Shown here: positions 20,989-24,757 of the stretch, in pieces
How the letters are laid out: every line of letters starts with the position of its first letter
Position numbering within the stretch: position 1 is the stretch's first letter
DNA from: a virus
Lineage: Duplodnaviria > Caudoviricetes
Direction: 5' to 3' (one strand)
Virus record (IMG/VR): IMGVR_UViG_3300014169_000023
Coordinates: 1-24,757 of that record
Length of the DNA: 24,757 nt
Notes under the pieces: model-generated
Told to the model about the DNA's origin: nothing
What the model saw: only the letters and a program-made list of their open reading frames with translations
The model's database searches: none
Made by a program: the position numbers and the translations under genes

Positions 20989-22056
20989 TCAAAAGGCGTT
21001 CCCGGTGATACCGGTCAGTTTCATCCCGGAGGATGGTTTTGAACAAACCACGTCGAATGCCACGATAACGACCCCGATATTGGCGATTTGCAGGTTTGGG
21101 ATCGAGCTGTAGAACCCGGAGAACGCAAACGGTGCGTCCTCGGAGATATACATCGCCAGATATCGGCTGTTGAAGATGTACGCCGTGCCCTGCGGGCAAA
21201 ACGGGTCCATGAAGATCGGGGTATCGCCGAGCAGGATCGCCCGGAAACCGGAATTGACCACATCGTCAATGCCGTAGCGCGAGCGCGGGCCGGTCTGGTA
21301 TTGCTCCATGGCCGACACACCACCGCCACCGGACCCGGTGCCGGCCGTGAGGCCCGTCACCATGTAGTCCGTCATCAGGGTGGTCCAGTCGCCTGGCGCC
21401 ATCACCATGAAGTCCGGCGCCTCGCCGCCCGCAAGAGACGTGGTGTTGACGATGTATTTGATTGTGCCAGTGCGGGTATTAGTTGCCGACCCGACCGATG
21501 TTTTGACCGTCGATTTCCAGAACGTATTCGACGTGCGGTTGATGCCGCCATAGGTCGTGACGTTCGTCCCGTCGTCATAGGCCTGGTAGAGCGAGTCCAC
21601 CTGCGTCTGACCCGGAACGTTGTAGTTGTTCGTAAACAGCGCCCCCGAGATGGCTTGCACCGCAACAGTCTTGGCGTCCGCCATGCGGGCCTTGAGGATC
21701 GGAACGACCACCTCGCTTGATTGGACCAGCGATTCCATGCCCATGAACGGGATGGGAACCACGCCAAGCTTGAGGTTGAATTCCCCGTTCTGGGCAGCCG
21801 TCAACACCGCCGGCTGCGGGAATACGCCGGAATAGTCCGACCACGAAAACTGCGTGTAGGAGCCGCCTTGGACGGGCACGGTGATTTGCGAGGCGCCGCC
21901 CTTGGCCTTCTGCGCATTGCGCATCAATAGGCCGAGAAGAGGAGTTGCCTTATAAATCTGGACTACTAAACGGGGAACAAAAGCTCGCCTTGTGAGTGCA
22001 GCAAGCTCGGCTCCTACAGCTCCTGATGGAAGAATACCTACGCCAAATTGCGGCAT
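20989..22056 (-). CDS. Major capsid protein (HK97 fold)
   Basis: 355 aa, after the scaffold gene. Typical layout: TRRAFVPRLVVQIYKATPLL, GGASQITVPV, TYGGINR...FWKS, PIFMDPFCPQGTAYIFNSRYL. Strong GC3 bias after codon ~43. Confidence 0.88.
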   Translation of the reverse strand: MPQFGVGILPSGAVGAELAALTRRAFVPRLVVQIYKATPLLGLLMRNAQKAKGGASQITVPVQGGSYTQFSWSDYSGVFPQPAVLTAAQNGEFNLKLGVVPIPFMGMESLVQSSEVVVPILKARMADAKTVAVQAISGALFTNNYNVPGQTQVDSLYQAYDDGTNVTTYGGINRTSNTFWKSTVKTSVGSATNTRTGTIKYIVNTTSLAGGEAPDFMVMAPGDWTTLMTDYMVTGLTAGTGSGGGGVSAMEQYQTGPRSRYGIDDVVNSGFRAILLGDTPIFMDPFCPQGTAYIFNSRYLAMYISEDAPFAFSGFYSSIPNLQIANIGVVIVAFDVVCSKPSSGMKLTGITGNAF

Positions 22057-22072: not shown

Positions 22073-22717
22073 CTAGTTGAGGTATCCGTTATCCTCGCAG
22101 ATTACCTCAAGTGGAGACCAGCCATCCATCCGGCGGGAAGGGGATGACGATGCATTCTCCAAGCGGTATCCAGCTTTCTCAAGAGCTTCCGGATTGCGCT
22201 TCAGGAGTTCGATCGCGAATAGGATTTGATCAGAGACGCGCTGCCCTGGCGGGTCCTTACGGGACCACAACTCCAGGTTCTCGATCCGGTTATCAGCCCG
22301 ATCGCCGTTCTTGTGATGAACGATCTCGCCAACGGTCAGCGCGCGGCCGAGATGCTTTGCCATCACGTCTCGATGTTCCGGCACGGACTGACCGTTAACG
22401 CTGATGCGCCGGTAGCCCTGACGGCCCGTGTACCCTGTCTTGACGTTGGCCGCCTCGTGCCAGCATGCCGCAGAGCAAAACCTCTTGCGAATGGCCTGGA
22501 AGCGTTTCAACGTCTCTTCCTTGCCGCATTGCGGGCAAGTGAATTTCACCATAGCCGCTTCCGTGTCAGCGGCACCTTTGCATTTGGTAGAGCAAAAACG
22601 GCGCCGGACCCTCGACGAGTGGAACACCTTGAACTCCGTTCCACAGCGCTCACACGGCTTCATGAACGACGCTTCCCGCGACGTTCCGTCCTTGCGCTTG
22701 TAGATACCTGTCGGCAT
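22073..22717 (-). CDS. Free-standing HNH endonuclease with two CxxC...RFCSxxC Zn-finger-like repeats
   Basis: CERC...RFCSTKC and CPQC...RFCSAAC, followed by [14 protein letters not shown]...[19 protein letters not shown]. Confidence 0.9.
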
Positions 22718-22771
22718 TCCTCGTCCTATCTTGTGCCCGATATTACAACGCCTCGGGGCCGGGCGTGTACC

Positions 22772-23549: not shown

Positions 23550-23948
23550 CTATGCAGGGGGCATTGCGGGGGCGGCGCCAGTACCCGGTGGCCCCGGACC
23601 GCCACCGCCCCCAGCTCCCGCCCCGCCGAGCGAGCGCATGACAGCATCAAGCGCGGCGTTCTTGCCGGCCCCTTGCTGTAGATCGCGAAGCGCGGTCTGC
23701 TGCATCCCTGGAACTTCCGCGGATGCAGGAACGTGCTTCGAAAGGCCCTGTATTGCGGATTGAACCGACTTGAACGGGTCCGACCCGATCGGCATTTCGG
23801 GCAGCGCCTCGATCAAAATCTTCACCGCTTCCCTGACTTTTGCCATGCCGGCCGCTTGAGCGCCTGGGCTGGCGCTGGGAACGGAAATAGGACCGGCCCC
23901 AATTGGGGGTCGGCCCGTCATTTGCGGCGATGGCATGGGCATCGGCAT
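23550..23948 (-). CDS. Pro/Gly-rich head-module protein with central helical hairpin
   Basis: AGMAKVREAVKILIEALP...KSVQSAIQGLSKHV is flanked by low-complexity Pro/Gly tails. The protein starts MPMPMP, giving three possible in-frame ATGs. Confidence 0.72.
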   Translation of the reverse strand: MPMPMPSPQMTGRPPIGAGPISVPSASPGAQAAGMAKVREAVKILIEALPEMPIGSDPFKSVQSAIQGLSKHVPASAEVPGMQQTALRDLQQGAGKNAALDAVMRSLGGAGAGGGGGPGPPGTGAAPAMPPA

Positions 23949-23952
23949 GCGG

Positions 23953-23991
23953 GTTTCGATCCACGCCTACGGCCCGTGAGCCGTAGGCGAC
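23953..23991 (-). ncRNA. Solitary type I-C CRISPR-repeat-like unit with extended stem (no array)
   Basis: GTCGCCTACGGCTCACGGGCCGTAGGCGTGGATCGAAAC: 5' GTCGC, CTCACGGG loop region and 3' GCGTGGATCGAAAC handle, with a perfect 10-bp stem (23964-23973 / 23980-23989). Confidence 0.55.
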
Positions 23992-24012
23992 ATCTTGTCA
24001 AGCGCCACTGAA

Positions 24013-24060
24013 TTACTTCCGGCGGTGCTTGCGGCCCCGGCGATTGCGTTCGGTATTCAT
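24013..24060 (-). CDS. Arg/Lys-rich micropeptide MNTERNRRGRKHRRK (15 aa)
   Basis: ATG...TAA, preceded by AGGAAG-TAAAGCC. Paralogous to the adjacent micro-ORF. Confidence 0.65.
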   Translation of the reverse strand: MNTERNRRGRKHRRK

Positions 24061-24064
24061 GGCT

Positions 24065-24109
24065 TTACTTCCTTCGCATTTTGCGGCCGCGCCGCGCGTG
24101 AGTGATCAT
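24065..24109 (-). CDS. Arg/Lys-rich micropeptide MITHARRGRKMRRK (14 aa)
   Basis: ATG...TAA, preceded by GGAG-AAGCAAGCC. Shares RRGRKxRRK* with its neighbour. Confidence 0.65.
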   Translation of the reverse strand: MITHARRGRKMRRK

Positions 24110-24168
24110 GGCTTGCTTCTCCAGCAACGGCACGGGGGACCAAGATTACCCGGCCGGACGTGAAGACG

Positions 24169-24756
24169 CTACTTGTGGCTCTTACCTTTGGTTGCGAGTT
24201 CCGGATGCTTCTCCGCAAACGCCGCCTGGGCCTTCGCCCGCTTTCGCGCCTTCATCGCAAGAGTATCTTCATGCGGCGGGTGTGTCAACATAATCAGATC
24301 TTCTGCATCGATTGCGCCCATTTTCATCAGGGCGAACGCCTTTTTCTCCGCATCCTCCATAAAAGCGGGGCTGGCGGTATGCGAATCAACGGTTACCCTG
24401 GCGTTGTCCGGGAGTTGCTTCAGGACGAACGTGGACGGCTTTTCATCGGCGCCGACGTAGCCAATGAGTTCCGCGTTTTTGGCCTGTTCCATCTTGAGGC
24501 AAAAATCACCGTCCTCCACGCATTGACGCTCGACAAGAAGCGCCCTGTCCCGCATTCGTGGCGAAGCATTTCTTGCCAGCGTCTGTGCATGAGAACCCGC
24601 ACGGACACCAGGTTCACTCTGGCCCTGCATAATTGGCATAAAACCGGCGATCTCATCGAACATTTCGATGGTCTTTTCGAGCCGGACGAAGAGCTGATCC
24701 GGGATTTTGGGCGCGAGGTCTTCGATCTTGGCATTCGGGCTTTCCTCCGAGGCAAA
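24169..24756 (-). CDS. Portal protein, C-terminal part (truncated by window edge)
   Basis: Frame is open to the window edge (FASEESPNAKIEDLAPKIP...). Contains MQGQSEPGVRAG.HAQTL, RMRDRALLVERQ, VTVDSHTASP and GAIDAEDLI. First gene of the head module. Confidence 0.8.
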   Translation of the reverse strand, partial: FASEESPNAKIEDLAPKIPDQLFVRLEKTIEMFDEIAGFMPIMQGQSEPGVRAGSHAQTLARNASPRMRDRALLVERQCVEDGDFCLKMEQAKNAELIGYVGADEKPSTFVLKQLPDNARVTVDSHTASPAFMEDAEKKAFALMKMGAIDAEDLIMLTHPPHEDTLAMKARKRAKAQAAFAEKHPELATKGKSHK

Positions 24757-24757
24757 C

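Follow-up and report, generated by a model that had tools for sequence, protein, structure and literature searches.

Why would a podophage carry a single type I-C CRISPR repeat-like unit, with an unusually long stem, directly in front of a gene in its head module? The unit occupies 39 nt on the minus strand at positions 23953-23991 of the window, by which we mean the whole 24,757-nt stretch of DNA analysed here, itself part of a podophage genome. Its letters read as originally claimed, and they fold as an 11-bp stem closed by a 4-nt loop, with 2 nt of tail on the 5' side and an 11-nt handle on the 3' side. The unit is intergenic, with 4 nt between its end and the ATG at 23948, and is the sole match to its own end pattern within the window, a pattern that 0 of 100 shuffles reproduced; this single-copy status applies to the sequence examined, about 13.6 kb of the 42.6-kb phage lying outside it. 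No second copy of the handle was found in the window with up to two mismatches allowed, the partner-repeat check gave a flank similarity of 0.49, and the unit thus lacks the two repeats flanking a spacer that define a CRISPR mini-array. The claimed absence of cas genes holds for 30 window ORFs searched with PHROGs and Pfam and for 34 ORFs of the window and L083, a record identical to it, searched with NCBIfam; the same searches returned no acr gene, and no aca gene lay near the unit among the ORFs scanned. Rfam gave no match on the unit at the gathering score, nor at E values up to 5.

An assembly error is ruled out for the unit. DNA contigs from runs X1, X2 and X4 and RNA contigs from X5 and X8 cross it without letter changes, X1 and X2 being possible source runs of the record and hence perhaps not independent of it, and run X3 has a gap at 23972-23996. 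The runs that best represent the phage are wetland metagenomes. The isolated unit folds at -21.2 kcal/mol (z -4.6), a stability reached by 0 of 200 shuffles and, when the middle 20 nt were shuffled, by 42 of 20,000. In the predicted transcript, pairing probability is 0.84-1.0 for the stem from its second pair onward and 0.09-0.23 for the first pair, which mostly gives way to a mini-hairpin upstream; two of three folding windows show a paired handle. The stem had been called perfectly self-complementary, which overstates it, because one of its 11 pairs is U-G and the other 10 are Watson-Crick. The further step from a perfect stem to selection on structure is not supported either: the left arm contains a near-tandem duplication of loop-side bases, and the extra arm looks as if a stretch had been duplicated locally and then, possibly, completed by template switching. 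An origin from a REP/BIME or donor element carrying this stem was rejected, as the 9-bp arms occur in 18 viral loci and the repeat ends in none of them.

Real type I-C repeats have the same ends as the unit. When 185,579 genomes were scanned for its first 7 bases and its last 16, separated by 7-18 free bases, 66 genomic stretches came back, mostly arrays, and cas5d, cas8c and cas7 adjoin the arrays in 7 of 10 loci sampled, all drawn from one class of genomes (the class of G037). The titles of 56 of the 66 stretches name what we take to be alphaproteobacterial taxa, with 6 unspecified Proteobacteria and 4 others. The 1,545 genomic copies with the same ends are all 30-34 nt long, nearly all with a 7-bp stem, and the long stem is therefore no known array form; at 11 bp it exceeds every one of them, in agreement with the original claim that it is longer than in normal repeats. 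No natural array with a 39-nt repeat bearing these ends occurs in the 66 stretches, and the closest natural repeat among the 1,545 copies is identical at 30-31 of 39 positions (77-79%).

The surrounding genes place the unit in the head-gene region. Recombination genes lie at the left of the window, and the 3' part of the portal gene (24169-24757, minus strand; 572 aa in L083) was identified at its right end by means of L083. From portal onward the order is two tiny Arg-rich ORFs, the unit, genes for proteins of 132, 72 and 181 aa, an HNH gene and the capsid gene, with a podophage-type major capsid protein (20989-22056, minus; PHROGs/Pfam and NCBIfam) downstream of the unit in the same direction. 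The 132-aa product (23550-23948, minus) is modelled as a three-helix protein and holds a conserved place in the head module of relatives; it was rejected as an Acr, having no family, a model pLDDT of 65 and no PDB match at E 0.001. One of the tiny Arg/Lys-rich ORFs (24013-24060, minus, 15 aa) has a counterpart in 27 of 29 loci examined, and the other (24065-24109, minus, 14 aa) is an extra copy seen in this phage only. In relatives this ORF encodes 10-17 aa, has a ribosome site and lies between the portal and 132-aa genes; its product might condense DNA as a core peptide, or bind RNA. Just before it, at about 24115-24165 (minus), most of 24 loci folded singly have a hairpin of variable sequence whose apical loop is often similar, and RNAalifold gave no consensus for this leader hairpin on a poor alignment. 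Elsewhere in the module, one contig of run X2 (depth 2) skips 572 nt of the HNH gene at 22153-22726, which may reflect an allele lacking most of that gene before the capsid gene.

Conservation in related phages, which had been suggested as a check, was not found. The unit is absent from this site in all 32 viral loci with the 132-aa gene, including L001, which is 97% identical over the aligned part, and also from L084 and L085, making 0 of 34 related loci, a set that includes several near-duplicates. The unit is therefore a lineage-specific gain, and with no relative keeping it there is no covariation at the locus. Elsewhere in the relatives, the handle has three one-mismatch matches in 2 of 32 records and no exact one. 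Upstream of the unit, 23992-24012 (minus) holds a TTC after the stop codon followed by 18 nt that match nothing else fetched and include an orphan TTGACA; this segment belongs either to the gained DNA or to old intergenic DNA.

If the unit acts as RNA, it must be transcribed, and the adjacent TTGACA at 24001-23996 had been singled out in this respect. The hexamer is present, but it is not a promoter, as no -10 box follows at 16-18 nt and a promoter scan returned 0 promoters. A better candidate lies at 24260-24288 (minus), within the portal gene's 3' end and about 260-300 nt upstream of the unit: a sigma70-type promoter-like site in which TTGACA and TAnnnT are spaced by 17 nt, with a start predicted near 24253; a stock promoter scan misses it because its -10 box matches at only 3 of 6 positions. 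For the Leu codon in its -35 box, 19 of 20 non-redundant loci use TTG, compared with 150 of 868 (17%) other portal Leu codons (p 5e-14, for related loci that are not independent), and the pattern as a whole is found in 23 of 29 loci. In L026 and L038 the pattern is lost within the portal gene and one is present in intergenic DNA instead; these intergenic promoters read as compensatory. RNA contigs of two separate studies span the unit and end at 24241 and 24239, where the DNA continues, 12-14 nt behind the predicted start; the contigs are unstranded, and one terminates in adapter sequence, a weak hint. Their depth peaks at 23800-24240 in both RNA runs (9.9 and 7.1 versus 2-5), although contigs cannot rank expression, and by bridging the unit they imply that uncut molecules (or DNA) exist. 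Transcription of the unit from the promoter inside the portal gene is therefore likely, judging from sequence conservation.

Together, these features favour, by a modest measure, a reading in which the unit is an RNA anti-CRISPR decoy of the Racr kind, a lone I-C repeat gained in the head-gene region. The original proposal of an RNA anti-CRISPR or Cas5d-processed site thus stands as the best reading, on account of the I-C ends, the solitary state and the intact determinants for Cas5c. This nuclease recognises the base of the stem, the UGG that follows the stem and the 3' tail, and not the loop (PMC8524198), and the unit retains the 2-nt tail, the CGC/GCG base, the UGG and the 11-nt handle. Because Cas5c reads the stem base and handle, cutting is likely, with the cut predicted between 23964 and 23963 (compare PMC8524198), and because it does not read the loop, the longer stem would be tolerated. 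Transcription would start at the promoter inside the portal gene, and the Cas5c of the host, which would be an alphaproteobacterium with a I-C system, would cut the unit at the stem base. The downstream product would be crRNA-shaped, with the 11-nt handle, 36 nt and a hairpin. That hairpin (23890-23916, minus, -17.5 kcal/mol) lies directly 3' of the 36 nt and could set the 3' end of the downstream RNA; L001, which is without the unit, seems by eye to have a similar one. Cas5c, Cas7 and Cas8c would then load on this product and the loaded Cascade would be diverted from antiviral crRNAs, at the predicted cost that cut molecules would have the 132-aa gene's first start codon masked. Such an arrangement has a precedent in RacrIC1, a I-C unit that lies in an mRNA and inhibits I-C immunity (PMC10651486). 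Counted against the decoy are the best natural-repeat identity of 30-31 of 39, the weak first stem pair and the handle that is often paired in context, as well as the absence of the unit from all 34 related loci, the lack of a neighbouring acr or aca gene among the ORFs scanned, the RNA contigs that bridge the unit and the mixed orientation of the other long units described below. No cultured relative of the phage was found, its protein matches being distant and mixed, and none of 996 spacers matches the phage beyond 17 nt; no repeat-like loose end occurs among the contig ends listed.

The unit also belongs to a wider class. A viral search with the same end pattern and 16-24 free bases found 45 loci which, with the window, comprise 26 solitary units, 16 in arrays, 2 at contig edges and 2 nested standard repeats; the reversed pattern gave 5 loci, with stems of 3-4 bp. 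Besides the window's unit there are 22 distinct solitary units, each with a different middle, and 16 of the 22 form a stem of at least 6 bp versus 8% in shuffles, the window's stem being the longest of the set. By the nearest PHROG-annotated gene, assigned by hand, 13 are sense, 6 antisense and 3 not callable (p 0.08), and five of the 13 sense units lie among virion genes. Over-length solitary units in L048, L057, L059, L060 and L068 sit in terminase-portal, capsid or tail regions of unrelated viruses, and the long units of L052 and L078 are, by eye, immediately preceded by a TTGACA with a -10-like box, a promoter-like site of their own. Of the 22, ten were checked against the list of PMC10651486, which derives from different database versions, and none is there; the 32-nt unit of L161 is.

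Compared with the Racrs of PMC10651486 and RacrIC1 in particular, the window's unit is alike in being a single intergenic phage I-C repeat, without cas genes, behind an upstream promoter and within an mRNA (both predicted here), and differs in its 39-nt length, 11-bp stem, 77-79% identity and location in a head module rather than beside an acr gene. For RacrIF1 it is the upstream product that acts, whereas here we propose the downstream one. I-C units are common in that study (2,090 'I-C' cells over two columns, or about 1,045 rows), whose SRUFinder procedure needs at least 90% identity and coverage; our unit falls below this rule when compared with the 1,545 same-end copies. Neither the handle strings nor the L083 contig prefix is present as this unit in its Supplementary Data 1.

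The decoy is compatible with a second, rather improbable role, in which the cut RNA is a Cracr-like guide that steers Cascade to cas5d codons and damps the cas5d-cas8c-cas7 operon. The guide would be the spacer-like 36 nt at 23917-23952 (minus), made up of a 4-nt linker and the first codons of the 132-aa gene. In the planned test, the 34 nt after the handle were compared with the phage, its relatives and 65 array loci. The phage itself and the 34 related loci were rejected as targets, having no PAM-flanked site, and no promoter in the 65 array loci matches. Among these loci there is one PAM-flanked seed match, in Shinella pollutisoli cas5d (L093), where the first 14 nt agree at 13 positions behind a TTC PAM, the sole miss falling at non-pairing position 12; host I-C crlRNAs use a TTC or TTA PAM and leave positions 6 and 12 free (bioRxiv 10.1101/2024.12.27.630466). 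Pseudo-guides drawn from the phage equal this match in 0.3% of cases (null 0.003, by run). A 17/20 match of the guide at L250, in held-out sequence, is an unrelated site and was taken as chance.

The matched site is the antisense of conserved C-L-G-x-R-E codons, and in 74 distinct cas5d genes the Glu codon supplies TTC (39) or CTC (35) at the PAM spot. All 12 pairing positions are matched in 1 of these genes, 11 in 3, 10 in 18 and 9 in 31, so that at least 10 of 12 are matched in 22 of 74 genes and in 14 of 26 loci (null 0.0005, phage pseudo-guides); the counterpart stretch of L001 reaches 9 at best, in one gene, and 7 of the 8 differences of the window's guide from L001 over the first 34 nt go toward cas5d letters. 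Held-out sets, which contain the same conserved site, gave nulls of 0.002 and 0.004. Pairing of the guide would be with the non-template strand, which is the side effective for I-E Cascade if 'targeting' is taken to mean pairing (PMC4288209). Against this, the match ends at 14 nt, spans of 17 and 35 nt not being significant (0.32 and 0.37), and the held-out sets hold no perfect seed run (runs of 7 and 9; null 0.74 and 0.22). Positions 1-5 are matched in only 3 of 74 genes; 57 have Thr where the guide needs Met, Leu or Val, and position 5 is a seed mismatch in most. The repeated low p-values moreover share one conserved site, with several statistics tried, and the phage's own start codons, which L001 has too, make up the core letters. 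The link between the window's guide and cas5d is thus no more than suggestive.

Clearer support for guides of this type comes from a different phage sequence. The same test was applied to 49 other solitary guides, and L155 alone stands out: in this provirus record (G438), a solitary 31-nt I-C repeat is followed by a 22-nt guide (together L155:1501-1553, plus strand) that agrees, behind a TTC PAM, with cas5d on its sense strand at the R-F-x-S-I-R-R-N-E codons. It scores 18/20 in the first set (0 of 3,000 nulls) and, against the held-out cas5d of L223, 19 of 19 pairing positions over 22 nt with misses only at 6, 12 and 18; 11 of 62 cas5d sites reach at least 18. The unit overlaps the ribosome site of a 135-aa gene with an HTH gene after it, a layout that would resemble acr-aca. 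From its sequence, L155 looks like a strong Cracr-like candidate against coding sequence, and its match makes it highly likely that phage-borne guides against cas5d coding sequence exist. Two other guides fail correction: that of L052, which matches cas4-like codons with the first base wrong, and that of L163, which at the protein level fits 12 of 150 Cas5d sequences (null 0.003 before correction for the 49 guides). The L163 unit (L163:1501-1550, plus) has a weak stem, and its downstream bases are codon-compatible with Cas5d S-I-R-R-N on the strand opposite to that of L155. We tentatively raise the idea that phages build guides from their own gene starts by means of a lone I-C repeat, aimed at conserved cas5d codons and not at a promoter; with such a target, one guide would serve many hosts without copying a host regulator. 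The window's unit might then address the codons of the Cas5d G-loop, and L155, much more clearly, the R-R-N-E codons.

The linker and PAM-like letters have a competing explanation, which we consider somewhat less probable still. Here a host repeat and spacer would have recombined at their former target, splitting the protospacer from its PAM, an escape that would leave a full-length guide against insert-free siblings. The window reads stop-TTC, 18 nt, unit, CCGC, and L010, L016 and L017 read stop-TTC-CCGC directly, which accounts for the PAM-like letters and the 4-nt linker without cas5d; L001 and L015 read stop-TTC-CGC, and in L021 and L024 the same first codons begin a few bases beyond the stop. 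The 36-nt spacer-like length fits these arrays, and because the repeat end occupies the PAM position in the phage there would be no self-targeting. However, six runs yielded no insert-free sibling with the exact junction, the 34 related loci contain no PAM-flanked target, and L001, the nearest relative, is longer by about 24 bases at this place and shares letters with the 18-nt piece. In addition, none of the arrays found has a 39-nt repeat, which would mean that the stem lengthened after capture. It is a matter of speculation whether capture was the origin and the cas5d match the reason for retention.

A captured repeat may also have no function. A recent relic, its stem lengthened by slippage and template switching and tolerated between genes, would agree with the absence of the unit from every relative and with the near-tandem duplication in its left arm, and quasipalindromes are known to be perfected by template switching (PMC7202029). 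We regard this as unlikely, since the unit lies on the correct strand behind a conserved promoter-like site, keeps every Cas5c determinant despite its rebuilt middle, and is joined by 22 other units of the same pattern with different stems. We consider it very improbable that the unit serves as a translation switch sensing Cas proteins, or as a processing site, and so tunes the 132-aa gene or stabilises the capsid mRNA. The handle does end 4 nt from the ATG, and a search that specified this pattern gave 13 viral loci in which a standard-length unit precedes AGGAG by 1-12 nt, the unit being single in 11, but relatives run the same module without the unit and no alternative fold hiding or freeing the start was found.

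The decoy and the guide both have described relatives, Racrs and Cracrs, and the unit falls outside the formal SRU identity rule of the one and the promoter rule of the other. Cracrs likewise combine a viral repeat with a PAM-proximal guide of at least 9 bp against cas genes and compete for Cascade, and I-C cases have been predicted (bioRxiv 2024.10.29.618823). On the first point the window's guide has the 13/14 match in L093 only and a perfect seed in 3 of 74 cas5d genes. Known Cracrs, however, are copies of host CreA/CreR that act on cas or creT promoters, whereas in the window, and clearly in L155, the match is to cas5d coding codons; the words 'coding' and 'cas5' are absent from that preprint's main text. 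Host I-C crlRNAs (bioRxiv 10.1101/2024.12.27.630466) share the Cas5c-cut unit, 11-nt handle, guide and 3' end in a hairpin, but sit in host cas operons and repress defence-gene promoters, unlike this phage unit. Viral mini-arrays (Shmakov et al., bioRxiv 10.1101/2023.03.03.530964) are similar in carrying phage-borne guides, against other viruses or cas promoters, and differ in having two repeats and a spacer where here there is one repeat and the spacer is the phage's own gene start. In the openly readable literature searched, bioRxiv supplements aside, neither long-stem I-C units nor viral guides aimed at the coding sequence of cas genes were described.

If the decoy reading is correct, type I-C RNA anti-CRISPRs would exceed their catalogued number, because units with rebuilt stems fall below the 90% identity filter, and they could ride on capsid-operon mRNAs rather than reside in acr islands. 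If the guide reading is also correct, phages would silence CRISPR through the conserved coding sequence of cas5, a target beyond the reach of the published Cracr search. With its 22-nt predicted match, L155 makes such coding-sequence silencing directly testable.
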